Shown here piece by piece: positions 1 through 22,601 of a DNA stretch of 64,000 bases; positions within the stretch are counted from its first letter, which is position 1, and each line of letters starts with the position of its first letter. Origin of the DNA: Anaerosomatales bacterium (lineage in GTDB: Bacteria > Actinomycetota > Coriobacteriia > Anaerosomatales > SLCP01); NCBI GenBank assembly GCA_029210645.1, contig JARGFT010000007.1:55297-119296 (forward strand), given 5' to 3'. The notes beneath the pieces are model-generated. The model worked only from the letters and a program-made list of their open reading frames with translations, had not been told where the DNA came from and made no database searches. The position numbers and the translations under genes were made by a program.

Positions 1-500
1 GCGAGCCGCAGGCCCGCGCCCTCGACAGCGGCAACCGTCGCCTCGACCGTATCCCGCTGGGCCGCGACGAGGAGCACCTCCATCATGTGCTCGTCGGAGG
101 GCGTCATGTAGTCACCGATGATGTGGAAGTCGAGGATGGCGTCCTCGATGGGTATCGGGATGTAGTCCTGCGCCTGGTACTGGATCGCGCCCTGCAGCTC
201 ATCGCGCTCCATGAACGGCAGATCGATGAGGCGCACGACGACCTTCTGGTTGGAGATGCCGGTCACCACGTCACGGCCCTTGATGCCGGGCTGGCGCCAC
301 AGCTCGCGGATCGCGGAGGCGACCGCCGAGGGATCGACGATGTCTCCATCGACGACAGCGCCCATCGGAACGTCAACGCGTCCGTACGACGCAAGCGTCG
401 GGGAGCCGGAGGATGACTTGAGCACGGCGGCGCGAACGTGGTCAGTCCCGATGTCGAGACCCACCGGCGGTGCGCCCGAGCCCATGGAGATGAAGCCCAC
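1..500 (-). CDS. pilM: Type IV pilus assembly protein PilM (actin-like ATPase), N-terminal part. The gene continues past the window start.
   Basis: Minus-strand translation from GTG at 500 (GGAGGA 5 nt upstream; in-frame stop at 531-533) reads VGFISMGSGAPPVGLDIGTDHVRAAVLK...ISNQKVVVRLIDLPFMERDELQGAIQYQAQDYIPIPIEDAILDFHI, the PilM pattern. It is absent from the ORF track because no stop lies inside the window. Confidence 0.8.
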   Translation of the reverse strand, partial: MGFISMGSGAPPVGLDIGTDHVRAAVLKSSSGSPTLASYGRVDVPMGAVVDGDIVDPSAVASAIRELWRQPGIKGRDVVTGISNQKVVVRLIDLPFMERDELQGAIQYQAQDYIPIPIEDAILDFHIIGDYMTPSDEHMMEVLLVAAQRDTVEATVAAVEGAGLRL

Positions 501-659
501 GGAGTCCTCCCTACCTGTCTGCTCTGTATGCTACGTCAAGGCTGCTGATTCGTGCTGCATCGGCTCCGCGGAGACACGACGGCGTCGGATGACGCCCGTC
601 ACAGATGATTCCCCGCATCCATGAAACCGCATATGCCCTCGGTGTGCAACAAATCCGTG

Positions 660-2171
660 TCATTGGCGCGCCCACGCACCCTTGGTCAGCAGCGGGGAGT
701 TTCGTCCCGGCAGACTGTCCGGCAGGAAGTCCGGCAGATCCGGGTCGGTCACGAGGTGCACGTTGTTGACTCCCATGTTGATGTGGCCGGCGACGATCGA
801 GCCGACGAACAGTTCGTTGTTGTTGAAGCGGATCGAGCCGCCGGCGTAGAGCGCCAGCGAGTGCTCGGGCAGGTCGCCGGGTCCGCTGTTTGAGTCCGTG
901 CCCGAGATCGACATGTCGACCGGCGTTGCGATCCCGATCGCGTGCCGGGCGTCCATCTTACGACCGGTCGTGTTGGGGTAGATGTCGCCCAGCACCGTCA
1001 CCGGGCCGTTGACGATAAGCGTACCGTTACCCTCGTACTTGATGGCGCGGTCGATAGTGAGCGGTCCGTCGACAAAGACGGTGCCGTCGAGGTAGAGGAC
1101 CTGGTTGATGTGGTCGTAGGCGAAGTCATCCCGCATGTTCGGGTCGGTGTATCCGTAGCCGTACCATGCACCGAAGCTTGCGGGGCCGATGGTGAGGCCC
1201 GTCGTGCCCTGTCCGGCCGGTGAGGGCTCGCTGCCGGCGCCGACGTACTTGTAGCCGAAGCGGTGCACGTCCGGGGTCGCGTTTCGGGCATAGCTGCGTG
1301 TGAACGTACCTGTGTTGGGTGGATCGACGGTCCGGTAATCGAGCGGAGTCGGGTTGGTTCTATCCGTCTCGTAGTTGTTCCCGGCAACCTCGCCCTCACG
1401 CATGCCCAGAAAGTTGTCGACCGATTCCTCCTGGGCCTTCTGGGCCGCCTCGAGCAGCTCGTAATCGAGCAGTCGCGGCAGCTCGATCCGGGGTACGGAC
1501 TGCGAGACCGAGCGGTAGAACGCGTTGGCGCCCGGCTCGGGATACGCACCCGAGACGTAGAGCTGGATCGGCATAGACTCCTGACCGAGTTCGGCGCTGC
1601 CCTGCCGGGTCAGCGCGCCGTCGACGAAGAGCGGGCCCTTGTGGACGTATGAGTAGCCCGACATCTCGACGGCACCGCGGACGTAGAACGGCCCGGTGAC
1701 GTTGCTGTTGCCGTTGATTCCGCCACCACCTGCGGTCAGGGACTCCTGGTTGCCGGCTGCGAAGATCATCTCCCACAGGTTGATGTAGAAGAAGCGCACG
1801 ACGACCGTCTCGGTGAAGCCGGTCCTGTCCGTCCCGGTCGACCTGAGTTCGTACTCGGAGTTCTCTAGACGCGTCACCATTACCTCGTAGGTGCCGTCAG
1901 AGATCGTGCCGGTCGCAGGGAAGTTGCCTGTCGAGAAACCGGTCCGGTAGACCTGCTCGAGGGCGGCATCGACCCCGGCGTTCGCGATCTGGAACGCAAT
2001 CGTCTCGCCCTGGGTGCGGGTCGTCTCCTGGAGCGCGTTACTCGCCAGCGCGAAACTTGCGATCGAGATCACGGTGAGCACCGAGATGACGCCCATAACG
2101 AGCGGCATGGCAATGCCCTCGTCGCGCCGCATCATCGCCCGCAGTGTCTGCATGTACCCCACCCCTACCAC
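660..2171 (-). CDS. PilX-like pilus-associated protein (large, possible tip or adhesin component)
   Basis: N-terminus MRRDEG-IAMPLVMGVISVLTVISIASFAL resembles the PilX N-terminal hydrophobic segment (no Glu5). The remainder is Gly/Asn-rich and beta-helix-like. It overlaps the upstream pseudopilin gene by 7 nt and lies between the minor pilins and pilM. Start is ambiguous (2171, 2153 or 2135). Confidence 0.55.
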   Translation of the reverse strand: MVGVGYMQTLRAMMRRDEGIAMPLVMGVISVLTVISIASFALASNALQETTRTQGETIAFQIANAGVDAALEQVYRTGFSTGNFPATGTISDGTYEVMVTRLENSEYELRSTGTDRTGFTETVVVRFFYINLWEMIFAAGNQESLTAGGGGINGNSNVTGPFYVRGAVEMSGYSYVHKGPLFVDGALTRQGSAELGQESMPIQLYVSGAYPEPGANAFYRSVSQSVPRIELPRLLDYELLEAAQKAQEESVDNFLGMREGEVAGNNYETDRTNPTPLDYRTVDPPNTGTFTRSYARNATPDVHRFGYKYVGAGSEPSPAGQGTTGLTIGPASFGAWYGYGYTDPNMRDDFAYDHINQVLYLDGTVFVDGPLTIDRAIKYEGNGTLIVNGPVTVLGDIYPNTTGRKMDARHAIGIATPVDMSISGTDSNSGPGDLPEHSLALYAGGSIRFNNNELFVGSIVAGHINMGVNNVHLVTDPDLPDFLPDSLPGRNSPLLTKGAWARQ

Positions 2172-2737
2172 TGCCTCAGTCGGAACTGGATGCGACGGGA
2201 GTCCGAGAGCACCCGTTCACCATGCGAGCTCACCACGTTCACGATCACTGACCTGGCGTCGGAGGCGACCGAGCCCATCGAGGTGATCTCCTCGTTGAGG
2301 TCCTCGGTGAAGTACCGGAAGAGCGGTTCTGCCTCGGCCACGTTCACGTTGTTCTCGGAGATGGTCCAGTCCTGGATGACGCGCTCCACCAGGGTGCGCT
2401 GGGCATTGAGCTCCTCGACCCGGTAGTGAAGCGTGCCGTCTGTAGTGGCCTCGATGCGGACCCGCTCCATCTTGTTGTTGAGATCACGATCGGTCAGCAC
2501 CACCACGTGGTAGGGCGAGGCATCCTCGATCGACGAGTTCTGCACCAGGATCGTGTCGATCACGAGTAGCGGCGAGGCGACCTCGTTGGTGAAGCGCGCC
2601 TGGCGGTCGCTCGCCCGGCTCGCCTGGACCATGGCGAACATCGAGCCGTACACCACACCGATCACCACGCCGATGAGGCCCATGACCACGATCAGCTCGG
2701 AGAGCGTGAACCCCTTGTCGTCCCGGTAGGCTCTCAT
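2165..2737 (-). CDS. Minor pilin / pseudopilin with prepilin-type N-terminal cleavage-methylation motif
   Basis: MRAYRDDKG|FTLSELIVVMGLIGVVIGVVYG is the classic G|FTLxE class III signal. ATG at 2737 lies 1 nt after the stop of the upstream gene. Confidence 0.75.
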   Translation of the reverse strand: MRAYRDDKGFTLSELIVVMGLIGVVIGVVYGSMFAMVQASRASDRQARFTNEVASPLLVIDTILVQNSSIEDASPYHVVVLTDRDLNNKMERVRIEATTDGTLHYRVEELNAQRTLVERVIQDWTISENNVNVAEAEPLFRYFTEDLNEEITSMGSVASDARSVIVNVVSSHGERVLSDSRRIQFRLRQW

Positions 2738-2738
2738 C

Positions 2739-4274
2739 TCACCACACCCCCGGCGATGCGAACTCGCGTGCGCCGGTCGTCGGCACGCTCAGGGGGCCGA
2801 GTGTGTTGGTCTCCAGCATGAGGTACTCGCTGTAGGGCTCCTCGGTGTAGTAGACGACGGCCTTGTAGCGGTAATCGACAGTAAGCGCGTTAGCGTTGTT
2901 GGCCGGAACGGTGATGTCGAAGTCGAAGATGCCGGTGGTGTTGCGCTGGAGCTCGGCCCAGGCACCGGCGCCGATCTTCTGCATGAGGATGTAGGTGACG
3001 TTGTACTCGGTGAAGGTCGGACGGCCGACCTCCAGGTCGATGTTGACGTCCCACGCTTTGACCTTGGCGGCACGTTCGTACTGGCCGTCGTAGGTACCGG
3101 AGAGGAGTGGGCGCGTCGTGAACCTGACCGGATCCTCTCCGACGTCCTCGGACGGATGCCAGTAGGAACGACGCGCAGGATCGCTCGCACTGCCCCGGCT
3201 CTCGGCCGCCACCCGCGTCGCATACCTGGTGAACGGCTGGGTTGCCAGCGTGTGTAGTCCGGCAGGGCCGGAGGTGACGATCTCATTCTCGGTCCACGAG
3301 CCATCCCTGGCCTGGGCGCCGACGAGAAGCACGTAGTGATCGCTCTCGCTGCGGCCGTCCATCGAGGTCGTCCACGTCATCGGCACCTGCGTGCCGGAGA
3401 GCAGTGCGTTGGCAACCAGGTTCGTCGGCGGGTCGGGAGGATCGTTGTCGATGAACACGCGCCGTGTCTGGTAGACGCGCTTCTGGTTGCTGTCGACGAC
3501 CTCCACGGTGATCGTGTACTCGCCGTCTTCAACGAAGGGCAATCCGTCCTCGTTGAGCGCCATCGTATCCCAGTAGAACTGCTTGGTCGCGGTGGTGGAG
3601 TCGAGCTCCCAGATCGCGCTGTTGCCCGCCTGGTCCCTCAGGTAGATACCACCGGGGCTCACCTGGAACGACATGCTCACGAGCCGCGCTCCCGGCATGG
3701 TGCTCTCGGCGATAGCATCGATCAGAACGGTCCGGCCGCGCACGAGGGCGGGTGGACTTTCCTCTGCAGGCGACTGGGGCCCGAACCTGATTGTCGGGCG
3801 CGTGTACTCGCCGGGAGGAGCTTCCTGGCGGATGTAGGTGGACATCGAGAGCGAGTAGACGACCTCTCCCCGCCTCGAGATCGTACCGTCGACGGTGAGC
3901 TGCTTGTAGTCCTGGGTACCCGGGGTGATGTCGGGATCGTCGACCCAGGTGACCGTCGGACGCAGGGCGATCGCGTATCCCCCGCTGGTCTGGGTGGACT
4001 CGACGGAGAGCGTCCCGGGTACCGGCGCAGCGACGACGTCGACGCCTACGTCGGTGTAGGACATCGCGCGGACTTCCTCGATGTAGGAGTTGATCGCGTT
4101 GACCAGCAGGGCTCGCTCGTTGGAAAGCACGCTCATGCTGGTGGTGGCGCCCAGAAGACCGAAGATCGCGGTGAGCACGAAGAAGAAGATGGCGATGGCA
4201 ACGACGACTTCGATGAGCGTCATTCCCTCGTCGTGTGCGGGGTATCGAGTCTGGCCCCTGTGCACCCTCACCAC
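2739..4274 (-). CDS. Large (about 510 aa) pseudopilin with Ig-like and fibronectin-III-like domains
   Basis: Prepilin motif HDEG|MTLIEVVVAIAIFFFVLTAIFGLLG. Residues about 279-362 (DPPDPPTNLVANALLSGTQVPMTWTT...HYVLLV...TRYATRVAAES) show an FN3-like pattern. GTG start at 4274, or 9 nt downstream (GGGAG SD abuts 4274). Confidence 0.7.
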   Translation of the reverse strand: MVRVHRGQTRYPAHDEGMTLIEVVVAIAIFFFVLTAIFGLLGATTSMSVLSNERALLVNAINSYIEEVRAMSYTDVGVDVVAAPVPGTLSVESTQTSGGYAIALRPTVTWVDDPDITPGTQDYKQLTVDGTISRRGEVVYSLSMSTYIRQEAPPGEYTRPTIRFGPQSPAEESPPALVRGRTVLIDAIAESTMPGARLVSMSFQVSPGGIYLRDQAGNSAIWELDSTTATKQFYWDTMALNEDGLPFVEDGEYTITVEVVDSNQKRVYQTRRVFIDNDPPDPPTNLVANALLSGTQVPMTWTTSMDGRSESDHYVLLVGAQARDGSWTENEIVTSGPAGLHTLATQPFTRYATRVAAESRGSASDPARRSYWHPSEDVGEDPVRFTTRPLLSGTYDGQYERAAKVKAWDVNIDLEVGRPTFTEYNVTYILMQKIGAGAWAELQRNTTGIFDFDITVPANNANALTVDYRYKAVVYYTEEPYSEYLMLETNTLGPLSVPTTGAREFASPGVW

Positions 4275-4288
4275 TCCCGATCGCGTAT

Positions 4289-4315
4289 GTGCATGCCGCA
4301 GAGCGCGGCATGCAC
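4289..4315 (-). promoter_or_regulatory. Perfect 11-bp inverted repeat (GTGCATGCCGC-N5-GCGGCATGCAC) in the leader of the pseudopilin operon
   Basis: Arms 4289-4299 and 4305-4315 are exact reverse complements. The repeat lies between the predicted -10 (4331-4338) and the SD/start (4274). No U-tract follows, so it is more likely an operator or 5-UTR hairpin than a terminator. Confidence 0.5.
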
Positions 4316-4330
4316 GCTTACCTCTCTACG

Positions 4331-4358
4331 CTATCGGCATCCGCGGGTCGCATCTTGA
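4331..4358 (-). promoter_or_regulatory. Sigma-28 (FliA/WhiG)-type promoter upstream of the pseudopilin operon
   Basis: Minus strand reads TCAAGATG-N12-GCCGATAG, versus the consensus TAAAGTTT-N11-GCCGATAA. It lies about 56 nt upstream of the 4274 start, just after the pilD stop. Confidence 0.5.
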
Positions 4359-4366
4359 ACGCTGTC

Positions 4367-5185
4367 TCACCCCGTGACCAGCGCAAGGTACATGCGGACG
4401 ACATCGGGTCCGACGAGCGCCGCGACGATACCCCCGAGGGCGAGGAACGGGCCGAACGGGATCTTGGTTCCAAGACCGTTTCCCGAGCGGGCCGCGGTGA
4501 TGATCCCGACCACCGCACCGAAGAGACTCCCGATGAAGAGCGAGAGCAGAACGTACGGGCCGAGGAACAGGCCCATCGCTCCGAGGAGCTTCACGTCCCC
4601 CATCCCGAAGCCGGAGCGCCCCCGCACGCCGGCGTAGAGCGCCGCGATCCCACCGCTGAGCCCTGCGCCCAGAACTGCGCCGAGAAGCGCCACGAGGAGC
4701 GGTGAGGCCTGCGCGCCGGTCAGCGGGACCCACTGCACCGATGCGAACTGCGAGACGGTCGCCCCGATCAGGCCGAGGACAGCCAGTACCGCCACGATCG
4801 GATTGGGAAGACGCATCGTGTCCAGATCGATGAAGGTGAGGATGAGCAGCGTCCAGAAGAACAAGCCTGCGATGACCGCCTGAACGCCGACCCCGTAGGT
4901 CAACGCCGCCGTCAGCCACAGCAGGGCCGAGAGCAGCTCGACGGCCGGGTAGCGGCTCGCGATGGGCTCACCGCACGAGCGGCAGCGAGCGCGCAGGAGG
5001 ATCCAGGAGATCACGGGGACGTTGTCGTACCAGCGGACGGGAGCGCCGCAGGACGGGCAGTGGGAGCCGGGTGTATTCAGCGACTCCCCTCTCGGGAAAC
5101 GCCAGATGACGACGTTCGCGAAGCTACCCACGAGCAGTCCGAACACGAACATCGCCACGGCGAAGAATGTGAGATCGGTGATCAT
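4367..5185 (-). CDS. pilD: Prepilin peptidase / N-methyltransferase (A24 family)
   Basis: FFAVAMFVFGLLVGSFANVVIWRFP...CPSCGAPVRWYDNVPVISWILLRARCRSCGEPI (CxxC...CxxC) followed by a polytopic membrane domain with GMGDVKL. Confidence 0.9.
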   Translation of the reverse strand: MITDLTFFAVAMFVFGLLVGSFANVVIWRFPRGESLNTPGSHCPSCGAPVRWYDNVPVISWILLRARCRSCGEPIASRYPAVELLSALLWLTAALTYGVGVQAVIAGLFFWTLLILTFIDLDTMRLPNPIVAVLAVLGLIGATVSQFASVQWVPLTGAQASPLLVALLGAVLGAGLSGGIAALYAGVRGRSGFGMGDVKLLGAMGLFLGPYVLLSLFIGSLFGAVVGIITAARSGNGLGTKIPFGPFLALGGIVAALVGPDVVRMYLALVTG

Positions 5186-5261
5186 GCGCCCCCTCCCGGA
5201 TATGATGGGACGAGTCTAGCGGAGAGGCGCAGTACTGTCGCGAGCGAGCTCAGACTATTGC

Positions 5262-5300
5262 GCGCAAGAACAACAAGCCAGCGCCCCTCGGCGCCGGCTT
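5262..5300 (-). terminator. Intrinsic terminator/attenuator after the second pilin gene
   Basis: Minus-strand RNA AAGCCGGCGCC-GAGG-GGCGCUGGCUU (11 bp including one G-U; 5275-5300) followed by GUUGUUCUUG, 26 nt past the stop at 5327. Confidence 0.55.
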
Positions 5301-5326
5301 GTCCCCGCGTAGCACGAGTACGCCCC

Positions 5327-5716
5327 TCAGAAGTGATCGTGTGGACCGCCGGAGGCAGCAGGGTTCGTGCAACTCACGAAACCAGTTGCCGAATCGTAGG
5401 TGTACCGCGCGTCGGCAACGGGGCACAGCGGCTCGTGAGCCATGTACCTGTCCGTCCCCACCAGGACGGTGGCCCAGGCGATGTCCTCACAGTCCACAAG
5501 TTGGTGACTGGGGTCTGCGGCGAGGTAGTGCTGTACGGCGCCTTCGATCATTCGCATGTTCGCATGACAGGCCCGCTCCTGCGTGAGCGCGCGGGCTGCG
5601 TTGAAGACCGGGATCGCGATCGCGACGAGGATACCGATGATGAGAACAACAACCATGAGTTCGACGAGCGTGAACCCCTGCTGATTGCTTCTGTATCGCA
5701 GCGGCGTACCTTCCAT
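5327..5716 (-). CDS. pilA: Type IV pilin (second tandem paralog)
   Basis: Internal ATG at 5716 with GGAGG SD. MEGTPLRYRSNQQG|FTLVELMVVVLIIGILVAIAIPVFNAARA..., 4 Cys, C-terminus GGPHDHF. The ORF-track start 5809 is an over-extension. Confidence 0.8.
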   Translation of the reverse strand: MEGTPLRYRSNQQGFTLVELMVVVLIIGILVAIAIPVFNAARALTQERACHANMRMIEGAVQHYLAADPSHQLVDCEDIAWATVLVGTDRYMAHEPLCPVADARYTYDSATGFVSCTNPAASGGPHDHF

Positions 5717-5762
5717 CAAGACCACCTCCTCGCAGGCTGCACGCGCGTTACCCCTACGCGTC

Positions 5763-5790
5763 CTATCGGCATGTTGAGCATCTGACTTGA
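5763..5790 (-). promoter_or_regulatory. Sigma-28-type promoter upstream of the second pilin gene
   Basis: Minus strand reads TCAAGTCA-N12-GCCGATAG, about 46 nt upstream of ATG 5716. Confidence 0.55.
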
Positions 5791-5855
5791 CGGCTGACCG
5801 TTCGGCCACGGGTCCCGCGGCGCCCTGGGAACGCGCACCTCTCAGGACCCTGCCA

Positions 5856-5901
5856 TCAGAGAACAGACAGAAGGGCCGGCAGCCTGCGCTGCCGGCCCTT
5901 C
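5856..5901 (-). terminator. Strong intrinsic terminator after the first pilin gene
   Basis: Perfect 14-bp stem GAAGGGCCGGCAGC-GCAG-GCUGCCGGCCCUUC (5870-5901) followed by UGUCUGUUCUCUG on the minus strand, 21 nt past the stop at 5923. Confidence 0.7.
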
Positions 5902-5922
5902 GACTTGGACCTATCGTGAATC

Positions 5923-6303
5923 CTAGTAGTGAGCGTGCACACCGGCGGGGCAGACCGTGAGGCCGCCGCCCGTGCCGTCCGCAGCAGGCGCGGTGATCAG
6001 GTACGTACCGGCACCGGGATTGAACGGGCAGGTCGGGGCGTCGACGAGCAGGCTTGCGCTGACGAGGTCACCCGCACTCGCCATGGCGGTGCCGAGCGCG
6101 TGGGTGGTATCGGCAGCAAGCCACTGCTGCACAGCGCCCTCGATCGTGCGCTGGTTGGCCTGGCAGGAACGCTCCTGGGCGGTCGCACGAGCTGCGTTGA
6201 AGACGGGGATGGCGATCGCAACAAGGATACCGATAATAAGAACGACGACCATCAGCTCTACGAGGGTGAAGCCCTCATCACTCTTCCGGAACATCTTGAA
6301 CAT
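5923..6303 (-). CDS. pilA: Type IV pilin (first tandem paralog, likely major pilin)
   Basis: Internal ATG at 6303 with AAGGAGG SD. MFKMFRKSDEG|FTLVELMVVVLIIGILVAIAIPVFNAARA..., 3 Cys, C-terminus AGVHAHY. The ORF-track start 6501 overlaps pilC and is an over-extension. Confidence 0.85.
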   Translation of the reverse strand: MFKMFRKSDEGFTLVELMVVVLIIGILVAIAIPVFNAARATAQERSCQANQRTIEGAVQQWLAADTTHALGTAMASAGDLVSASLLVDAPTCPFNPGAGTYLITAPAADGTGGGLTVCPAGVHAHY

Positions 6304-6379
6304 GTCCCGCACCTCCTTCTCCCTTTCGGGCGATCCGGTGGCCCCCCTCATGGCGGCCACTCGCTTGCTAACACAGGTG

Positions 6380-6406
6380 TTATCGGCAGCGCATCGGTGG
6401 ACTTGA
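6380..6406 (-). promoter_or_regulatory. Sigma-28-type promoter upstream of the first pilin gene
   Basis: Minus strand reads TCAAGTCC-N11-GCCGATAA. The -10 octamer is identical to the FliA consensus and the spacer length is identical. It lies about 76 nt upstream of ATG 6303. Confidence 0.6.
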
Positions 6407-6430
6407 GGGGATTTCTCAGAATCTTCCGCG

Positions 6431-7651
6431 CTACTGCACCAACGTGATGACTTGGAACATCGGAAGGTAGAGCGCGACCACCATGGTGCCGACGATCGCA
6501 CCGAGGGTGGCCATCATGAGCGGCTCGATGAGCGAGGTCAGACCGTCAACGGCGGTGGCAACCTCTTCGTCGTAGAAGTCGGCGATCTTGTTGAGCATCT
6601 GATCCAGGGCGCCGGTCTCCTCGCCCACCGCGATCATCTGCACGAGCATCGAGGGGAAGACTTTCGACTCGGAGAGCGGCTTGGCGATCGTCTCGCCTTC
6701 CTTGATAGCCGAGCGCGTCTTCTTCACGGCCTGCGCGACCACCTCATTACCCGAGGTGTCGGCCACGATGTCGAGTGCCCCGAGGATCGGCACACCCGCC
6801 GACACCAACGTCCCGAACGTCCGGGTGAACTTGGCGAGCGCGATCTTACGGATCATGCTGCCGAACACCGGCATCTTGAGTTTGGTGCCGTCCCAGATGA
6901 GCTTGCCGCTGACCGTACCCTTCCACCAGCGGAACGCGAAGATGAACGCGACGAAGCCCACGATCAGGAAGAGCCCACCGATGCCGGACACGAAGTCAGA
7001 GGCATCGACAAGCATCTGCGTCATGAACGGCAGCTCTCCGCCCATCGAGGAGAACATCTCCTCGAAGGTCGGCACGACGAAGATCATCATCGCGGCGAGG
7101 ATGATCAGCACGAGCGCACCCATCGCCACCGGGTAAGTCATGGCAGACTTGATCTTGCCCTTGAGGGTGAGTTCGGCTTCGAAGTGGTCCGCGACGCGCA
7201 CCAGGACCTCGTCGAGCACACCACCGGTCTCGCCGGCGCGCACCATGTTCACGAAGATCGGCGGGAACACCTTGGGGTGCTTGCTCATGGAATCGGAGAG
7301 TGACTGGCCGGCCTCGACGTCGTTGGCGACCTGCTGGATGATCTCCTGCAGCCCCTTGCTCTCGGTCTGCTCGGCAAGGATGGTCAGGCACTTGGTGAGC
7401 GAGAGGCCCGCGTTGATCATCGTGGCGAACTGCCGGGCGAAGATGGCAACGTCTTTGACCTTGACCCCGGTCCCGAACTTGATCTGACCGATGGCAGCGA
7501 GTTGGGACTGCTGATCGAGCTCGAGGATGATGTAGCCCATCTCACGGAGCTTGCCGCCGACCGCCTCCCGGCTGGCACCCTCGAGCGAGCCCTTGACGAT
7601 CTTGCCGGTACGGTCGCGCACGGAGTAGTTGTAGACGGCCATCGAACGCAC
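6431..7651 (-). CDS. pilC: Type IV pilus platform protein PilC (GspF family)
   Basis: 406 aa with two GspF repeats (FARQFATMINAGLSL..., FTRTFGTLVSAGVPIL...), three TM segments, C-terminus LYLPMFQV. Confidence 0.9.
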   Translation of the reverse strand: MRSMAVYNYSVRDRTGKIVKGSLEGASREAVGGKLREMGYIILELDQQSQLAAIGQIKFGTGVKVKDVAIFARQFATMINAGLSLTKCLTILAEQTESKGLQEIIQQVANDVEAGQSLSDSMSKHPKVFPPIFVNMVRAGETGGVLDEVLVRVADHFEAELTLKGKIKSAMTYPVAMGALVLIILAAMMIFVVPTFEEMFSSMGGELPFMTQMLVDASDFVSGIGGLFLIVGFVAFIFAFRWWKGTVSGKLIWDGTKLKMPVFGSMIRKIALAKFTRTFGTLVSAGVPILGALDIVADTSGNEVVAQAVKKTRSAIKEGETIAKPLSESKVFPSMLVQMIAVGEETGALDQMLNKIADFYDEEVATAVDGLTSLIEPLMMATLGAIVGTMVVALYLPMFQVITLVQ

Positions 7652-7712
7652 TCCTCGTCATCGTGTGTCCCGCCCTCGGGCGGTCATCTCCTCGGCCTCC
7701 CGAGGAGAGCTC

Positions 7713-9389
7713 CTACACGATGACGCGCAGGATCTCCTCGACGGAGGTGGTCCCCATCCGGACCTTCTCGAGCCCATCCTGTTTGAGGGTGAGCATCCCT
7801 TCGGCGACGGCGGTTCTCTTGATCTCCTCGGCGGTAGCCCCTGCGACTGCGAGCCGGCCTATCTCCTCGGACACGAGAAGCACCTCGTGCACTCCCAGTC
7901 GTCCGAGGTAGCCGGTTCCGCCGCACTTCTTGCAGCCGACCGCCTTGAAGATCCTCTCAGGCAGGTTATCGGCAGGAAAGCCGGCGTCTATAAGCGTTTG
8001 CGGCTTGGGCACGTACTCTTCCTTGCACGAGGGGCACAGCCTGCGCGCGAGTCGCTGCGCGAGCACGCAGTCGACCGCGGATGCCACGAGGAAGGGCTCC
8101 ACACCCATCTCCACCAGGCGCGTCACCGCTCCGGACGAGTCATTGGTGTGCAGGGTCGAGAGCACGAGGTGGCCGGTGAGCGCGGACTCGATTCCGATGC
8201 GCGCCGTCTCCTGGTCCCGGATCTCTCCGACGAGGATGATGTCGGGCGAGCACCGCAGGAACGACCGCAGCGCGCGGGCGAAGGTCAGACCGGCCCTCAC
8301 GTTGACCTGGCACTGGTTGACGCCCGGGACCCGGTACTCGACCGGGTCCTCCGCAGTGAGGATGTGCTTGTCGGGTGAGTTCAGCACGTTGATGGCTGCG
8401 TAGAGCGAGGTCGACTTGCCCGAGCCGGTGGGACCGGTCACCAGGATCGCCCCGTACGGCTTGCGGAACGACGACTCGAAGCGCGCGAGCGACTCGGGCA
8501 GGAAGCCAAGATCGCTCAGCTGCATCAGAATCGCGTCCTTGCGCAGGATCCTGAGTACGATGCGCTCACCGTACACCGTGGGCAGCGAGGAGACGCGGAA
8601 GTCGATCTTGTGACCCGAGACGGTCACCTCGCAGTGGCCGTCCTGCGGCTTGCGCGTCTCCGCTATGTCCATCTCGGCCATGATTTTGAAGCGGCTGACG
8701 ATGGATGCCTGCACGCTGCGGGGGCTGCGCATGACCTCGTGGAGCACGCCGTCAACCCTGAAGCGCACCCGCAGGTCGCTCTCTTGCGGCTCGATGTGGA
8801 TATCGCTCGCCCGCTCGCTCACGGCCTTGGTGATGATGTAGTTCACGAGCTTGACGATGGGCGCGTCCGTCGAAACACCACTCAGACTCTCCAGCTCGGC
8901 CTGGTCGAGCTCATCGGTGCCGATGATGTCGCTCGGGTCGCTGCGCTCGGCGATCTTGTAGTACGTGTCGATGGCGCCCAGGATGTCATCTTTGGTCGAT
9001 ATGCCGGCGCGGATCTCGTGTCCCGTGATGATGCGCAGGTCATCGAGTGCGAGCACGTTCTGCGGGTCGGCCATCGCGACCACGAGCGTGTCGTCGGTCA
9101 TCGAGATGGGCATGAGCGTGTAGCGTTCGGCAAGTTCACGTGGCACCGAGGCCACGGCGTTGGGATCTGGTTTGACCACCGCGAAATCGAAGTGCTCGAT
9201 GCCGATCTGCGCGGCCATCACCGACAGGATCGCGCTCTGCGTCGCGTAGCCGAGATCGACGATGACGCGTCCGAGGCGCTCGCCCGTCGCTTTGTGGACT
9301 TCGAGCGCATCGGCCAGTTGGCGCTCGGTGATGACCCCCGACCGCATCAACAACTGACCGAGCCGATGTCCCGCCCCTGCCACAGTCAT
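7713..9389 (-). CDS. pilB: Type IV pilus assembly ATPase PilB (GspE family), paralog 1
   Basis: 558 aa. N-terminal tandem RLGxxLLxxGxI...Q repeats, Walker A GPTGSGKST, Asp box DPVEYR, Walker B ILVGEIRD, His box GHLVLSTLHTN, tetracysteine CPSC...CKKC. Confidence 0.9.
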   Translation of the reverse strand: MTVAGAGHRLGQLLMRSGVITERQLADALEVHKATGERLGRVIVDLGYATQSAILSVMAAQIGIEHFDFAVVKPDPNAVASVPRELAERYTLMPISMTDDTLVVAMADPQNVLALDDLRIITGHEIRAGISTKDDILGAIDTYYKIAERSDPSDIIGTDELDQAELESLSGVSTDAPIVKLVNYIITKAVSERASDIHIEPQESDLRVRFRVDGVLHEVMRSPRSVQASIVSRFKIMAEMDIAETRKPQDGHCEVTVSGHKIDFRVSSLPTVYGERIVLRILRKDAILMQLSDLGFLPESLARFESSFRKPYGAILVTGPTGSGKSTSLYAAINVLNSPDKHILTAEDPVEYRVPGVNQCQVNVRAGLTFARALRSFLRCSPDIILVGEIRDQETARIGIESALTGHLVLSTLHTNDSSGAVTRLVEMGVEPFLVASAVDCVLAQRLARRLCPSCKEEYVPKPQTLIDAGFPADNLPERIFKAVGCKKCGGTGYLGRLGVHEVLLVSEEIGRLAVAGATAEEIKRTAVAEGMLTLKQDGLEKVRMGTTSVEEILRVIV

Positions 9390-9482
9390 GCCCTTCCCGG
9401 GCGGATACGCATCACTCCGCCCGCACCGTCTAACACTGCCTCAGCGCCATGGTACGACATCCTCCGCGCAGGCAGCCCACGC

Positions 9483-10091
9483 TCACCGCTTCCGCCGGGA
9501 GGACCTCAAGTCGTCGAGGAGCACCGCCGCGAAGCGCTGGAAGCGCGCATCCGTATCCGAACCCGGTCGCACCGCAACGCACGAGTCCCCGAACCAGAGC
9601 TCGACGGCTGCCGTCATCTCGTACCGCGGCCCCTCTGTCGCAGCAACCGTTGCAGGGGGCGCTACCGGCGCCGGCTCTGGCTCAGGCTTAGGTCGGGGCG
9701 GCGCGGGAGACTCCCTGCGACGGCGGGGCGGGGGTACAGGAACCGGGATCGGTGGCTGTGGGACCGGGGTTCGCGGCCGCGGGACCGGAATCGGCACCTC
9801 CGAGACCGGCAGGTTTGCTTCGAGGCTCTGCAGCTCCTCCTCGAGTTTGAGCTCCGGCCACCGCTGGGCCACAGCGTCTTGCGTCTGCACCGGCGCGGGC
9901 GGCGGTGCAGCGGTGTAGTCGTCCAGGTGGGCCGTCCACCACGGCTCTGCCTTGACCGCCTCGGCAGGCTCGGGATTCAGTTCGCTGAGACCGTACCGCT
10001 TGATGAGCGCACGTACCCGAACAAACGCGACAAGACCCACGAGAACAAGCAGTACGAGCGATGCAGCCGGCGCGTAGGTCTCCAGGTTCAC
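9483..10091 (-). CDS. Membrane-anchored proline-rich protein of unknown function (part of the GTPase module)
   Basis: GTG start 3 nt after the GTPase stop. One N-terminal TM helix (AASLVLLVLVGLVAFV) followed by RVRALIKR (C-terminus predicted cytoplasmic), a roughly 100-aa Pro-rich linker and a roughly 50-aa C-terminal domain (GPRYEMTAAVELWFGDSCVAVRPG...). Confidence 0.55.
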   Translation of the reverse strand: MNLETYAPAASLVLLVLVGLVAFVRVRALIKRYGLSELNPEPAEAVKAEPWWTAHLDDYTAAPPPAPVQTQDAVAQRWPELKLEEELQSLEANLPVSEVPIPVPRPRTPVPQPPIPVPVPPPRRRRESPAPPRPKPEPEPAPVAPPATVAATEGPRYEMTAAVELWFGDSCVAVRPGSDTDARFQRFAAVLLDDLRSSRRKR

Positions 10092-10094
10092 CGG

Positions 10095-10610
10095 CTACTC
10101 CATGCTCTCCATGATGCGGTAGAGAAGCGCGAGGAGCACCTGCTTGACCGACTCCCTGTCTCGGGCGTCGACGGCGAGCACCTCGACGGATTCCTCGATG
10201 CCGAGCCGTTGGCGGAGCGCCGCGAGCCGGTCCGGCGAATCCACGCGGTTCGCGGCGATCACGAACGGTACCGACGACATGTTCCGGAAGAAGCTCACGA
10301 TCGCGGTCGCGTCCCCGATCGAGCTGTCGTCTGCGGCGTCGACAAGGACCACAAAACCGAGCATACCCTCGGAGAGCGTCTCCCACATGAACGAGAACCG
10401 CTCCTGGCCCGGCGTGCCGAAGATGTAGAGCACCACCTCATCCGAGATGGTGATGCGTCCGAAGTCCATCGCGACCGTAGTCTCGCCGCCTGCAGACGAG
10501 TCGGTGACGTCTCGCTCCGTGGAGAGCACGGTGATCTCGCTGACAGACTTGATGAACGTCGTCTTCCCCGCATTGAACGGACCGGTGACGACTATCTTCA
10601 CAGACTGCAT
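10095..10610 (-). CDS. Small Ras-like GTPase of the CvnD / MglA-like (COG2229-type) group
   Basis: 171 aa. P-loop GPFNAGKTT, switch-I TTVAMDFGRI, G3 FGTPGQERF (Thr instead of Asp, as in MglA/CvnD), G4 NRVD. Close overall pattern match to Streptomyces conservon CvnD proteins as I recall them. Confidence 0.8.
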   Translation of the reverse strand: MQSVKIVVTGPFNAGKTTFIKSVSEITVLSTERDVTDSSAGGETTVAMDFGRITISDEVVLYIFGTPGQERFSFMWETLSEGMLGFVVLVDAADDSSIGDATAIVSFFRNMSSVPFVIAANRVDSPDRLAALRQRLGIEESVEVLAVDARDRESVKQVLLALLYRIMESME

Positions 10611-10629
10611 GCGGCTGTCCTGTCCCCTG

Positions 10630-12387
10630 TTACAGCTTCTTCAGACCGTCGATGACCTTCATGACGAGCGCCTTGCTGACCGCCTCGTCCCTGCGAAGAC
10701 CGGCGATCTTCCCGGAATCGGGAATGATACCCACGTTGACCGCAGGCCGGCTTCCGCGCGCGCCCGTCAACGCGCCCATCTCGTCACTCATCGCACTCGA
10801 CAGGTCCGGCTCGAACTCGTCCTCGTCGGTCTCCTCAGCGGGCACGATCTCCGCCTGAGGCTCGAGCTCGTCGAGCGATTCGAGCAGGTCGCTGAGGTCC
10901 ACGACCCCCGTCGTCTCCTGTTCGAGCGTGATGGTGAGCTCGTATCCGGGCAGCTGGTCGGGTTCCGGTTCGGGCTCGGGCGCGTGCTCGGGCTCCGGTT
11001 CCGGTTCGTGCGCGGGTTCCGGTTCGGGCGCGGGTTCCGGTTCCGGCGCGGGCTGCCACTCGAACTCAGGCTCCGGCGCCGGCTCTTCTTCCACAAGCCC
11101 CTCTGCGGACTCGACAAACCGCTCCGGAAGCTCACCGATACCGAGCGACATGAGATCGCGCTCGAAGTCGGGCTGTGCTGTCTGCGGCTCGACGACATCG
11201 GCCGTCTCGGCAACGGGCTCCTCGGCAACGGGCTCCTCGGATGGGATGTCGACGTCCTCCGCACGTTCGAGGTCAGGCTCTGCCGGCACGTACTCGACGT
11301 GCGGGGTGACTATCGTGTCCAGCATCTCGGCAAACGAGGTGACATCGTCGGTGGTCGCGGTGGCCGAAGGGCCGGTCAGGAAGGTGGGCGCCTCGGGAGC
11401 GGGCCGGGCATCGGCCGGCGGCTCGGGCTCCGGTTCGGGTTCCGGCTCCGGCACGGGTTGCCACTCGAACTCGGGCTCTGGTTCGGGTTCTGGTTCGGGT
11501 TCCGGCTCGGGCTCCGGCCCGGGCTCGACCTCGGGTTCCGGCTTGGGCTCCGGCCCAGGCTCGACCTCGGGTTCCGGCTCGGGCTCGGGTTCGGGCTCGA
11601 CCTCGGGTTCCGGCTCGGCGGCGTACTCCCCGGCAGGAACCTCTGTCGGAAGCTTCATGAAGTCCTCTTCGACCGCGAACTCCAGCAGGCCGGCCGAGAA
11701 CAGACCGTAGAGGATGCGGGCAACTTCGAAGTCGGTGCGACCGGTGTCCCGGGCAAGCTCGGCGACCGAGCGAGTGCCGTCGACCAGCAGGAGCAGGCTC
11801 CACTCGACCGGCTTGAGCGAGATCTCGAACGTGCCCTCACCGGGGGCGGTCGCCATCTTGAAGATGACGTCCATCGAGGGGACCTTCTTGCGGATTCGCG
11901 CCCACTCGTCGAGACGGCGGCTCCCCTCCATGATCACGTTCTCTATCGAGACCGTGAGCCCGATGTCCTCGTCGACCACCTCGGGAAGGAGTTCGAAGTC
12001 GAACTCGCCATCCTCCCAGCGCATGAGATCGAAGATGGTGTCCTGTATCTGCTCCTGCACGAAGGCCTCGAGGACCTTCTCGGTGATGTAGCCCTCGTCG
12101 ACGAGCACCTGCCCGAGCCGTCGGCCGCCCTCGGGCTCTGCCGAGCGGATCTCAAGAGCCTTGCCGAGCGCGCTCGGCGTGATCTTGCGTGCCGCCACGA
12201 GCCGCTCGCCCAGCAGTTCGTGATGCCAGTTGGACTGCGCGAAGAACACCTCTCCGTCGCGGAACCACACTGCCCCAGCCGCATCTCCGGGTCCGGAGAT
12301 GCGCAGCACACCGGTCTTCCTGCTGAACGTGATCAGCTGGAAGACGTCGGGTAGGCTGAAATCCTTGAGACTGCCTCTGAGGGCCAT
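10630..12387 (-). CDS. PATAN (DUF4388) domain protein with T2SSE_N/MshEN-like repeat, winged-helix-like segment and long Pro-Glu repeat linkers
   Basis: N-terminus [32 protein letters not shown]...[13 protein letters not shown] is the DUF4388/PATAN signature. Residues 58-113 form two GspE-N-like repeats (second is [24 protein letters not shown]). Residues about 195-238 ([40 protein letters not shown]) are wHTH-like, as in DUF742/CvnC. Two PE-repeat tracts. Confidence 0.75.
10957..11085 (-). repeat. In-frame Pro-Glu low-complexity repeat (copy 2) containing [15 protein letters not shown]
   Basis: Encodes [42 protein letters not shown]. The DNA is degenerate GGYTCSGG-type hexamer repeats. Confidence 0.85.
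11416..11619 (-). repeat. In-frame Pro-Glu low-complexity repeat (copy 1) containing [15 protein letters not shown]
   Basis: Encodes [66 protein letters not shown]. It shares the FEWQP core with copy 2. Confidence 0.85.
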
Positions 12388-12435
12388 CGGTTCCGTCGGT
12401 GCCCTTCCCGGCCGGCTGGTGCGGCCGTTCGATTG

Positions 12436-13110
12436 CTAGCGAAGTATCTCAGCGATGGTATCGGCAGCAGCACGCATGTCGTAGAGCACAAGGCCGAGTT
12501 TGGCCTCCCGGCGCGCGAGGACGGTAAGCACCGCTCGACCGCCGACCTCGACAAGCAACACGTACCCATCCGCACCCTCGATGAACACCTGCGTCAGAGA
12601 GCTCCGACCGAGTTCGGCGGCAGCCCGCTCGCCGAGAGCGAGGATCGCTGCCGACATCGCACCGACCCGGTCCTCATGCATACCCTCGGGCAGCGCCGAG
12701 GCGATGATGAAGCCGTCCAGGCTGACCAGCGCTGCTGCCTCGATATCCGAAGCGTCCTCCATGAGCTCCTCGAGGGCGGTGCGTAGACGCGCCTCCCGGT
12801 TCGAGACTCTGCGGGGAGCGGCAGCAGGTGCTTCCGCGGGTGGCGGCGAGGCCTGGGCCTGAGGCGCAGGCGCTGGTGGCGTCGGCGCCGGAGCCTCGGG
12901 AGCTGGTGGCGCCGGAGCGGGCTCGGGCTGCACAGCAGATGGCTGCGGCGCCGAAGGCGGCGTGTCGGCCACCGGCGCGGCCTGCGGAGCAGGAGCCGGC
13001 GGCACTATCACTGGCGGGGCGGCCCCTTCGCCACCCTCATCGAGCATCTCATCGTCGATGTCGCCAAGCAGGTACTTGTCGATCCCCTCATCGGACACTG
13101 TCGATGCCAC
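12436..13110 (-). CDS. Roadblock/LC7 (MglB/CvnB-like) domain protein with N-terminal Pro/Ala-rich region
   Basis: The C-terminal roughly 115 aa, LEELMEDASDIEAAALVSLDGFIIASALPEGMHEDRVGAMSAAILALGERAAAELG...GYVLLVEVGGRAVLTVLARREAKLGLVLYDM, match the Roadblock/LC7 pattern. Residues about 28-100 are PAPAPQ-type low complexity. Start is uncertain (GTG 13110 abuts the SD; GTG 13098 or ATG 13047 are possible). Confidence 0.75.
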   Translation of the reverse strand: MASTVSDEGIDKYLLGDIDDEMLDEGGEGAAPPVIVPPAPAPQAAPVADTPPSAPQPSAVQPEPAPAPPAPEAPAPTPPAPAPQAQASPPPAEAPAAAPRRVSNREARLRTALEELMEDASDIEAAALVSLDGFIIASALPEGMHEDRVGAMSAAILALGERAAAELGRSSLTQVFIEGADGYVLLVEVGGRAVLTVLARREAKLGLVLYDMRAAADTIAEILR

Positions 13111-13246
13111 CTCCCCTTTCCCGTGAACCGCGCCTCGTCAACGGCGAATCCGAGCACGTGACGAACCGCGTCCCCTCCCCGCAAGTCTCTCACGAAGCAG
13201 TGGTCCCTACAACCGAGAAGCACCTCTACGCTGCGAAAACGCTGGT

Positions 13247-14923
13247 TCACACGACGACGCGCATGATCTCCTCGATCGACGTCAGCCCCATGCGCACCTT
13301 CTCGAACCCGTCGACCTTCAGCGTCTTCATGCCCTCCTCGATCGCCTGGGCCATCAGCTCGTCGGTCGACGCGTTCTCAACCGTCATGCGCTCCATCGTC
13401 TCGGACATCGTCATCACCTCATGGATACCCATGCGGCCGCGGTACCCGATATCGTTACACTTCCTGCACCCCTTGGCGCGATAGAGACGGGGCGGATTGC
13501 CCGGTTCGAACGGAAAACCGATACGGGCGAGTGCTTCCTCCTCGGGCACGTACTCCTCCTTGCAGTCCGGGCAGAGCCGCCTGGCCAGACGCTGCGCAAG
13601 GACGCACGTGATCGCCGATGCGGTCAGGAACGGTTCGATCCCCATCTCGGTGAGGCGCGTGACGGCCGAGGGGGCGTCGTTCGTGTGGAGCGTCGAAAGT
13701 ACGAGGTGGCCGGTGAGCGCCGCCTCGATGGCGATCGTCCCGGTCTCGGCGTCGCGGATCTCACCGATCATGACGGTATCGGGATCCTGTCGCAGGATCG
13801 AACGGAGTGCCGCCGCGAAGGACAGGCCCGCCTTCTCGTGCACCTGCACCTGGGAGAGCCCGTTGAGCCGGTACTCGACCGGGTCCTCGACGGTGATGAG
13901 GTTCGTTCGCACGTCGTTGGTCCGGTTGATCGCGGCGTAGAGCGTCGTCGACTTACCCGAGCCCGTCGGCCCGGTCACGAGGATCGCTCCGTACGGGAGG
14001 GAGAGCGCATCGAGCAGCCTCTGGAGCGGCTGCTCCAGGAAGCCGAGGTCCTCGAGGGACATCATGATGGAGTCCTTACGCAGCAGGCGCATGACCGCCA
14101 TCTCGCCGTGAACGAGCGGCAGCACCGCGACGCGGAAGTCGACCGCATGTCCGTCGAGCACCACGCCGAAGCGCCCGTCCTGCGGGATACGCTTCTCGGC
14201 GATGTCCATGCCGGCGGAGATCTTGAGCCGGCTGATCAGCTGCCGCTGCATCTTCTTGGGGCTCCGGAAGACCTCCTGGCACACGCCGTCGATGCGGAAC
14301 CGCACCCTGAGTTCGTGCTCGTGCGGCTCCAGGTAGATATCACCGGCACCCTGGCGGATGCCTTCGGTGACGATGAGGTTCATGAGCTTTGCGACAGGAG
14401 CGCTCTCGTCCTCGATATCCTCCTCGGCGGTCTCCTCCGACACTGTGACCGAGTCTTCGAGGTCGCCCACCATGCCGTCGACGTTGGCGTGAGCTGCTGC
14501 GAACTTGTCGATCGCCTGGACAAGGTCGCTCTCGGTGACCACGACCGGTCGGATCTCAAAGCCCGTGACGATCCTCAGGTCGTCGATGGCGATCATGTTC
14601 GCCGGGTCCGACATCGCAACCAGCAACTCGTCGTCCTCGATCTTGATCGGAAGGACGCTGTGTCGCCGAGCGAGGTCCGAGGAGAGATTGACGGCCGCGT
14701 TCGGGTCGATGTCGTAGCCGGGCAGGTCGACGAAGTCAAAGCCCAACTGCTCCGCGATGGCGCGCGCAACGGCAGTCTCGGATGCGTGACCGAGATCGTC
14801 GAGTGCGGCGGTCAGGCTCTTGCCCCCGCCAGCGGCTTCGATCGCCTCGGTGAGCTGCTCGGGTGTGATGACCCCTGCGCCGACCAACAGACGCCCGAGC
14901 CGTGCACTGCCCGCTGCACTCAT
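13247..14923 (-). CDS. pilB: Type IV pilus assembly ATPase PilB (GspE family), paralog 2
   Basis: 558 aa, roughly half the residues identical to paralog 1 by eye. GPTGSGKST, DPVEYR, VMIGEIRD, GHLVLSTLHTN, CPDC...CRKC. ATG overlaps the aroE stop (ATGA, 14920-14923). Confidence 0.9.
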   Translation of the reverse strand: MSAAGSARLGRLLVGAGVITPEQLTEAIEAAGGGKSLTAALDDLGHASETAVARAIAEQLGFDFVDLPGYDIDPNAAVNLSSDLARRHSVLPIKIEDDELLVAMSDPANMIAIDDLRIVTGFEIRPVVVTESDLVQAIDKFAAAHANVDGMVGDLEDSVTVSEETAEEDIEDESAPVAKLMNLIVTEGIRQGAGDIYLEPHEHELRVRFRIDGVCQEVFRSPKKMQRQLISRLKISAGMDIAEKRIPQDGRFGVVLDGHAVDFRVAVLPLVHGEMAVMRLLRKDSIMMSLEDLGFLEQPLQRLLDALSLPYGAILVTGPTGSGKSTTLYAAINRTNDVRTNLITVEDPVEYRLNGLSQVQVHEKAGLSFAAALRSILRQDPDTVMIGEIRDAETGTIAIEAALTGHLVLSTLHTNDAPSAVTRLTEMGIEPFLTASAITCVLAQRLARRLCPDCKEEYVPEEEALARIGFPFEPGNPPRLYRAKGCRKCNDIGYRGRMGIHEVMTMSETMERMTVENASTDELMAQAIEEGMKTLKVDGFEKVRMGLTSIEEIMRVVV

Positions 14924-21816: not shown

Positions 21817-22601
21817 TCCCTCACGATGTTCTCGCGCAGCACCTTCAGGGTCTTGCGCAGCAACCGGGACACCTGCATCTGAGAGATCTCCAGTTGCCTG
21901 GCGATCTCGGTCTGGGTAAGGCCCTCGAAGAACCTCAGGTACAGCACGCGCTGTTCCAGCGGCGTCAGGAACTTCAGCGCTGCAGCGAGCGTCGTCCGAT
22001 CGTCAACAACAGCCATCAGTGCGTCGTCCTTACCGATGTACTCGAGGATAGAGAAGGTATCGGAGCCGTCCCCTCCCCGGTCGCTCTCGAGCGAGACGAA
22101 GTTGTAGGCCTCGCTCGTCTCCATCGCCTCGAGGACCTCCTCGGTGGTCACGCCGATGTGCTCGGCGATCTCCGGGATCGAGGGCGAGCGCTGGAGCTTC
22201 TGGGTCAGTGCGTCCATCGCCTGGTTCACCCGGAAGGAGAGCTCCTGGAGGCGGCGAGGAACCTTGATCGCCCACCCCTTGTCGCGAAAGTAGCGCTTGA
22301 GCTCACCGACGATGGTCGGCGTCGCGTACGTGGTGAACTCGACCTGGCGGTCGGTGTCGAAGCGGTCGATCGCCTTGATGAGCCCGATCGTGCCCACCTG
22401 GATGAGATCGTCGATGGGTTCTCCGCGGTTGCGGAACCGGCTGGCCAGGTACTTCACCAGGTTGAGATACATCGTGATGAGCTCGTCGCGTGCCGCCTCG
22501 TCGCCTTCGAGACGATACCGGCGAAAGAGCTCGCGGGTGAGCTGTTTGTCCCAGGTGAGTTTGCGGGACTTGTTGCCGGTGTTGTTCCTAGCTACCGGCA
22601 T
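21813..22601 (-). CDS. Group-3 RNA polymerase sigma factor, SigB/SigF-like
   Basis: DLIQVGTIGLIKAIDRFD, YATPTIVGELKRYFRDKGWAIKVPRRLQEL, QRSPSIPEIAEHIGVTTEEVLEAME, TQTEIARQLEISQMQVSRLLRK; aligns by eye with B. subtilis SigB. Confidence 0.85.
   Translation of the reverse strand: MPVARNNTGNKSRKLTWDKQLTRELFRRYRLEGDEAARDELITMYLNLVKYLASRFRNRGEPIDDLIQVGTIGLIKAIDRFDTDRQVEFTTYATPTIVGELKRYFRDKGWAIKVPRRLQELSFRVNQAMDALTQKLQRSPSIPEIAEHIGVTTEEVLEAMETSEAYNFVSLESDRGGDGSDTFSILEYIGKDDALMAVVDDRTTLAAALKFLTPLEQRVLYLRFFEGLTQTEIARQLEISQMQVSRLLRKTLKVLRENIVRD

Follow-up and report, generated by a model that had tools for sequence, protein, structure and literature searches.

In a 64,000-nt stretch of the genome of an Anaerosomatales bacterium (hereafter the window; G + C content 66%), the genes for the two major pilins and the operon for the minor pilins of a type IV pilus cluster are each preceded by a two-part site with the sequence and spacing of a sigma-28-type promoter. 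We infer the sigma factor, its recognition of these sites and the positions of the transcription starts: P1 to P3, as we call the sites, would be promoters read by RNA polymerase with a sigma-28-family sigma factor (FliA/SigD/WhiG type) that is encoded elsewhere in the genome, a reading that we hold at a probability of roughly 0.8.

All three sites lie on the minus strand and share the form TCAA-N15/16-GCCGATA(A/G), with spacers of 15, 16 and 16 nt and an intact CGA core. P1 (6380..6406), in front of pilin 1, joins the −35 element TCAA(G) at 6406..6402 to the −10 element GCCGATAA at 6387..6380 across a 15-nt spacer; it may also be written TCAAGTCC-N11-GCCGATAA, and 76 nt separate the end of its −10 element from the ATG of pilin 1 (6303). 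P2 (5763..5790) is TCAA(G)-N16-GCCGATAG, with the −10 element at 5770..5763, or TCAAGTCA-N12-GCCGATAG in the longer notation, and lies 46 nt from the ATG of pilin 2 (5716). P3 (4331..4358) has the same composition, TCAA(G)-N16-GCCGATAG, with the −10 element at 4338..4331 (TCAAGATG-N12-GCCGATAG); it is separated by 56 nt from the GTG start codon (4274) of the first minor-pilin gene and begins 9 nt 3' of the stop codon of the prepilin peptidase gene pilD. Every site is thus intergenic, on the coding strand and less than 200 nt from a start codon (46 to 76 nt). A preliminary description of the window had placed sigma-28-type sites at these same three positions, and our reading of the minus strand agrees with it throughout.

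Flagellar promoters of the sigma-28 class have the consensus TAAAGTTT-N11-GCCGATAA in Escherichia coli (FliA) and TAAA-N15-GCCGATAT in Bacillus subtilis (SigD). The sites in the window resemble them in both half-sites and in the spacing, and the G after T(A/C)AA is also kept (TAAAG/TCAAG). They differ from the flagellar class in their targets, which are pilin genes and not flagellin, motor or chemotaxis genes, and there are no flagellar genes in the window.

The sites are far more numerous than expected by chance. TCAAG-N14-16-GCCGATA occurs three times in the window against 0.02 expected, and none of 100 shuffles reached three; the literature-defined pattern TCAA-N15-17-GCCGATA returned the identical three sites against 0.07 expected, and TAAA-N15-17-GCCGATA returned none in the window. 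GCCGATA by itself is present in 14 copies (6.3 expected), and the 11 copies outside P1 to P3 have no −35 half. The earlier statement that no other site in the window carries both halves was borne out by the pattern scans and by a relaxed scan, in which one mismatch was permitted and the CGA core kept intact; the latter added just intragenic sites and a weak TCTA-N16-GCCGATAC at 12485..12458, upstream of a DUF4388 gene. This weak match was rejected as a fourth site, given its −35 mismatch and the lack of a counterpart in relatives. Also rejected as a promoter was a copy of GCCGATAA at 7973..7966, which lies within pilB, encodes ...PADN... and is conserved as coding sequence.

Comparison of the same intergenic regions in related genomes, a check proposed in the preliminary description, revealed that the half-sites are conserved in orthologous pil loci whose flanking sequences have diverged. 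Relatives were collected with a PilC-based scan, one genome per species; loci L001 to L015 are close (PilC 67-86% identical), several of them labelled Coriobacteriia, and the same scan also yielded more distant Actinomycetota loci. In L001 to L015 the strict pattern T(A/C)AA-N15-17-GCCGATA has 18 matches against 0.18 expected, all 18 on the pil strand (0 on the opposite strand) and all in front of pil genes. The spacer between −35 and −10 is 15-16 nt in these relatives, rarely 17, and neither spacers nor leaders have a common sequence between loci. Two to three sigma-28-type promoter sites are found in each related locus that contains the whole cluster.

The conservation extends to each of the three positions. 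T(A/C)AAG-N15/16-(G/C)CCGATA stands upstream of the major pilin in 13 of the 13 related loci that contain this region, 79-107 nt before the prepilin glycine codon, and most of these orthologous sites have the canonical TAAAG. In L001, the ortholog of P2 is TCAAG-N16-GCCGATAG, 47 nt before the pilin 2 homolog. Upstream of the homolog of the first minor-pilin gene (511 aa), a site orthologous to P3 was found in L001, L002, L003, L006, L008, L010, L011 and L015; it lies 56-108 nt upstream and reads TCAAG-N16-GCCGAT(A/G) in every locus with such a homolog except L008, which has TAAG-N16-GCCGATAA. A k-mer count of positions −200 to −40 that presupposed no motif led to the same elements: the top words were CCGATA (13/13), GCCGAT (11/13) and CTAAAG (11/13) for the major pilins, and GCCGAT and TCAAG (both 7/7) for the minor-pilin operons. 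Among the distant Actinomycetota loci, the motif also precedes pilin genes in L018, L020, L023, L028 and L030, and it is absent upstream of pilin genes in others, for example L016, L017, L019 and L032-L033. The major-pilin genes of L032, L033 and L034 (acAMD-2-like Actinomycetota), which are without the sigma-28 motif, share a different conserved upstream block, GCACACCCG..N..CGGGGTCGCAAAGCC, at a distance of about 155 nt from the glycine codon.

Type IV pilus clusters with WhiG-type promoters are on record for Rubrobacter and Actinoplanes and, as predictions, for a few families of the class Actinomycetes. Rubrobacter radiotolerans was searched with TAAA/GCCGATAA, and 12 sites were verified by capture of 5'-triphosphate ends, of which three lie in the type IV pilus cluster and drive nine pil genes in three units; two sites of WhiG type were predicted in the pilus cluster of R. 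xylanophilus (Schumacher et al. 2021, PMC8325347). A survey of WhiG1 and WhiG2 across Actinomycetota, based on 673 reference genomes, gives the WhiG2 consensus as a −35 element T(A/C)AA, N16 and a −10 element GCCGATAA in which CGA never varies (Denis et al., 2026 preprint, PMC12871210); this consensus admits TCAA as a −35 element. Sites within pilus clusters are confirmed for the FliA-family regulon of Actinoplanes missouriensis, and the predicted targets repeatedly include type IV pilus biosynthesis, namely in Rubrobacteraceae, Cellulomonadaceae, Jonesiaceae, Sanguibacteraceae, Cryptosporangiaceae and Actinoplanes (PMC12871210).

The cluster studied here has the consensus in common with Rubrobacter (−35 TAAA/TCAA, −10 GCCGATAA) and, like that of R. 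radiotolerans, contains three such promoters inside one type IV pilus cluster. Unlike in the Rubrobacter work, the host is an anaerobic member of the Anaerosomatales (Coriobacteriia), and the promoters serve just the major pilins and the minor-pilin operon. Furthermore, WhiG, the anti-sigma factor RsiG and the transcription starts are known in Rubrobacter, whereas neither a WhiG nor an RsiG gene was found in the window or in the related loci searched. Actinoplanes is flagellated and forms sporangia, while the Anaerosomatales are deep-branching anaerobes known mainly from metagenome-assembled genomes (MAGs). As consensus, spacing, intergenic placement on the coding strand, conservation and the Rubrobacter precedent all agree, the sigma-28-type reading given in the preliminary description is well supported, and P1 to P3 are a real feature of the genome.

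Several results weigh against the assignment to a sigma-28-family sigma factor. A gene for a FliA/WhiG-family sigma factor is absent from the window, from the extra 4 kb of L081 and from 80 related loci, and a phmmer search with the group-3 sigma factor of the window (described below) against all open reading frames (ORFs) of the window and the 80 loci found just SigB/F/G-like or divergent group-3 sigma factors. Two WhiG queries were also used, Streptomyces venezuelae WhiG rebuilt from PDB alignments and the sigma-2 plus sigma-4 regions of Rubrobacter WhiG. Among the best 120 matches listed, the former gave Streptomyces alone and the latter gave Rubrobacteraceae, Conexibacter and metagenome proteins; none of the WhiG-query matches listed (the best 120-150) was assignable to Anaerosomatales, which is absence of evidence, not evidence of absence. 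When a representative library was searched, each of the best 150 matches listed scored at least 216 bits, and ranking by similarity to Rubrobacter WhiG was uninformative; the contigs of three WhiG-query matches (P0363, P0305 and P0396) came from none of the related assemblies. The RsiG signature E(X)3S(X)2R(X)3Q(X)3D was found in no ORF of the window, of L001-L036 or of L049, L053, L065 and L080. Finally, Coriobacteriia are mentioned neither in PMC8325347 nor in the main text of PMC12871210.

The WhiG/FliA-type sigma genes retrieved with the Rubrobacter WhiG query have a recurring neighborhood on other contigs. In L082 and L084/L085 the gene order is ilvD, a hydrolase gene, a xerC-like integrase gene, whiG and an EF-G-like gene; the contig of L083 begins just before the sigma gene, so that the EF-G-like gene downstream alone is visible. 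This xerC-whiG-EF-G arrangement could guide the search for whiG in other deep-branching Actinomycetota.

The window itself encodes two other sigma factors. The product of 21813..22601 is of SigB/F/G type, scoring 286.6 bits against TIGR02980 (cut-off 234) and 130 bits against the FliA_WhiG model TIGR02479 (cut-off 189.6), and the preliminary description was thus right in calling it SigB/F-like and in noting no FliA-like sigma factor in the window. The second, at 39653..40219 on the plus strand, went unmentioned there; it is an extracytoplasmic function (ECF) sigma factor whose best match is SigM/SigE-like, below the equivalog cut-offs. Its stop codon overlaps the start of a 332-aa ORF without family match (39653..41214 for the pair, plus strand), which may encode the anti-sigma factor of the ECF sigma factor.

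The presence of both genes, where a sigma-28 gene was not found, makes it conceivable that P1 to P3 are promoters read by a sigma factor outside the FliA/WhiG family, be it of SigB/F/G type, an ECF sigma factor or another alternative sigma factor of convergent specificity. The gene positions lend some color to this idea. In the window as well as in L049, L053, L065 and L080, a SigB/F/G-type sigma gene is found 8-14 kb upstream of pilC, the distance being 8-9 kb for sigma factors of the window type in the Thermoleophilia and Rubrobacteraceae loci, and in two loci a divergent group-3 sigma gene directly follows pilC: L053, a Thermoleophilia MAG (11219..12046), and L065, an Actinomycetota MAG (11136..12083). 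These two divergent proteins score 174-179 bits against the SigBFG model, below its cut-off, and about 90 bits against FliA_WhiG, and no standard prepilin gene was detected near them. The proximity of SigB/F/G-type sigma genes and pil genes is probably a consequence of a housekeeping gene order that is conserved around aroE, namely alaS-ruvX-mltG-aroE-[pil]-aroC. The −10 elements of ECF and sigma-28 promoters are both centred on a CG(A/T) core, which speaks for an ECF sigma factor; ECF −35 elements normally contain AAC, and the T(A/C)AAG of the pil sites is without it.

The SigB/F/G-type sigma factor of the window has the SigB/F hallmark in region 2 (...GELKRYFRDKGWAIKVPRR...) and not that of FliA/WhiG. 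Its best-scoring relatives among solved structures point the same way, with 175 bits for 8x6g_H, where the alignment runs through the same SigB/F-type region 2, and 164 bits for the sigma factor of 1l0o, which we take to be SigF, against 102 bits for WhiG. In addition, an RsbW-like kinase gene adjoins the sigma gene (21813..22992 together), the usual SigB/F arrangement. Known SigB/F promoters have the form GTTT-N-GGGTA, and P1 to P3 are unlike these half-sites; GTTT-N13-17-GGGTA has no match in the window, a result that is uninformative on the specificity of the window's sigma factor. A reader outside the FliA/WhiG family is unlikely. A little less likely again is that the Anaerosomatales are without any FliA/WhiG sigma factor and that another family, for example the nearby SigB/F/G type, reads the pilin promoters; if this were true, sigma-28 specificity would have been taken over by, or have evolved independently in, another sigma lineage.

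Conservation alone cannot tell a promoter from the site of a regulator, and the two-part motif might therefore be an operator for a DNA-binding regulator or some other cis element, the true promoter lying elsewhere in the intergenic regions. The major-pilin regions do contain one more semi-conserved block, ..GGTGTAGG.., 6-12 nt past the −10 element. The geometry argues against an operator: the halves are asymmetric, form neither a palindrome nor a direct repeat and stand a fixed 15-16 nt apart, as −35 and −10 contacts do, and between each site and its gene there is a leader of 46-76 nt. A consensus scan for a housekeeping sigma-70/sigma-A promoter (TTGACA-N16-18-TATAAT-like) found no match in 1..13500, and the motif is identical in sequence to an experimentally defined promoter class. 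We consider this explanation very improbable. Functionless chance matches can be dismissed almost entirely, for even though the pattern of the preliminary description had been set after the sites were seen, which makes its statistic in the window partly circular, the literature-defined consensus recovered the same sites and the one-sided excess before pil genes in independent loci effectively refutes chance.

If P1 to P3 are sigma-28-type promoters, they would give rise to three transcripts. The preliminary description had mentioned two terminators, and two suitable stems are indeed present on the minus strand. Pilin 1 (5923..6303) is followed by an intrinsic terminator at 5901..5870 with a 14-bp stem (11 GC pairs) and a T-rich tail, the fold energy across 5922..5860 being −34.9 kcal/mol. 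The terminator-like hairpin 3' of pilin 2 (5302..5265) has a 13-bp stem, ACAAGCCGGCGCC/GGCGCTGGCTTGT, and a T-rich tail, TGTTCTTG; it was seen by folding and was not listed by the terminator consensus scan. Because terminators follow pilin 1 and pilin 2, the three sites stand at the starts of three would-be separate transcripts. A sigma-28-family holoenzyme would thus start one transcript per promoter: from P1 a monocistronic pilin 1 mRNA with a structured leader of 76 nt and a strong terminator at its end, from P2 a monocistronic pilin 2 mRNA ending in the second hairpin, and from P3 the transcript of the minor-pilin operon. The building blocks of the filament would then be switched on together whenever the sigma factor is active. 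By analogy with Rubrobacter, one may speculate that an RsiG-like anti-sigma factor responding to cyclic di-GMP (c-di-GMP) restrains it; no GGDEF or EAL domain was found among about 55 window proteins scanned.

The leaders are structured. That of pilin 1 (6304..6379) contains a GC-rich hairpin (6360..6338) as well as the Shine-Dalgarno sequence GAAGGAGGTG, that of pilin 2 folds into a 6-bp stem close to its 5' end, and an 11-bp hairpin is predicted by folding at 4289..4315 in the leader downstream of P3. The major-pilin leaders of L001-L015 contain a GC-rich hairpin of 7-10 bp about 20 nt past the −10 element, whose position is kept although its sequence is unrelated between loci, and in the window and in these relatives the hairpin is followed by CCCC..GGGG and GAAGGAGGTG. 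It may be a 5' stem-loop that stabilises the mRNA. RNAalifold found no consensus fold for the major-pilin leaders aligned with MAFFT, which cannot align hairpins of unrelated sequence; folded one by one, the sequences do form the hairpins. A search of 4100..6600 against Rfam gave one sub-threshold snoRNA match, which was taken as chance.

The preliminary description had further proposed that subunit genes depend on sigma-28 whereas the motor genes are transcribed otherwise. This holds for the genome studied here and fails as a conserved rule. In the window, pilB (7713..9389) and pilC (6431..7651), both on the minus strand, have no sigma-28 motif upstream, and none was found for pilD either; these genes are apparently transcribed from housekeeping-type promoters. 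The 93-nt region upstream of pilB contains TACCAT at 9454..9449, a housekeeping-like −10 element about 60 nt before the gene, which recurs as TAYCAT in most of the relatives L001-L015. Six of these loci (L001, L005, L007, L009, L011 and L015) have in addition a sigma-28-like site 66-99 nt before pilB, and in L001, L005, L009 and L011 it adjoins TAYCAT, an arrangement that suggests dual promoters. In the nearest relative, L001, the site upstream of pilB is TCAA-N15-GCCGATGT; the equivalent in the window, ..GGAGGATGT, looks like a decayed form of it. One subclade carries TAAC/TAAG-N16-GCCGATA(G/A/T) about 110 nt before pilC (L002 at 5431, L003 at 2273, L004 at 1147 and L006 at 3052), where pilC may have its own sigma-28-like promoter.

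Cultured Anaerosomatales are described as non-motile, non-sporulating and piliated, flagella being unmentioned, and in one of them, Parvivirga hydrogeniphila, pili form only during growth on solid ferrihydrite (PMC9686372). The latter shows that pilus formation is under conditional regulation in the order, and from the former it follows that sigma-28 specificity would serve pili and not flagella. The term late regulon, used in the preliminary description, is borrowed from the flagellar hierarchy, and nothing in our analysis supports a temporal class. Our analysis would extend pilus control of the WhiG type to the Anaerosomatales, a widespread subsurface order of the Coriobacteriia, which fits the idea that such control is an old and recurrent job of actinobacterial sigma-28. 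If promoters of this kind also precede the pilin genes of P. hydrogeniphila, the sigma factor would be activated by the signal for surface or mineral contact. The pattern T(A/C)AAG-N15/16-GCCGATA may also be used to predict the regulon in Anaerosomatales genomes.

The pilus genes are embedded in a housekeeping neighborhood. On the minus strand the order is alaS, ruvX, mltG, a gene for a HAD-family hydrolase, aroE and a first PilB-like ATPase gene (13247..14923), followed by genes for a Roadblock protein, a DUF4388 protein, a small GTPase and a 202-aa protein without family match, and then by pilB, pilC, pilin 1, pilin 2, pilD and three minor-pilin genes. Beyond the left end of the window, after a gap of 160 nt downstream of the minor-pilin operon, come pilM, pilO and two unnamed neighbours, and then aroC and aroK. 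Pilin 1 (126 aa) has a class III signal peptide (...DEG/FTLVELMVV) and matches N_methyl (PF07963) and TIGR02532; the identical protein is encoded on NCBI record JAVVDZ010000001.1 (GCA_032251415.1, 'MAG: Anaerosomatales bacterium'). Pilin 2 (129 aa; 5327..5716, minus strand) has a similar N-terminus (...QQG/FTLVELMVV). PilC comprises 403 aa in the gene call of the record and 406 aa from a different start codon. The gene pilD (4367..5185, minus strand), whose product matches A24_N_bact and Peptidase_A24, lies between the second terminator and P3. The minor-pilin operon (660..4274, minus strand) has tightly packed starts and stops and encodes proteins of 511 aa (2739..4274), 190 aa (2165..2737) and 503 aa (660..2171), of which the 511-aa and 190-aa proteins have prepilin N-termini.

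Two further features of the window deserve mention. Between the two PilB-like ATPases, both of which have c-di-GMP-type MshEN domains, lie the genes for the Roadblock/LC7 protein, the 585-aa DUF4388 protein and the Ras-like GTPase (10095..14923 with the first ATPase). This trio resembles a module of MglA/MglB type appended to the pilus cluster, and its DUF4388 protein carries an MshE-related c-di-GMP-binding motif together with long Pro/Glu repeats. Away from the pilus genes, a 1214-aa ORF at 32042..35686 on the minus strand combines a RecJ exonuclease (residues 36-570, scoring above the cut-off of TIGR00644) with a region of the RecQ helicase family (residues 737-1104).

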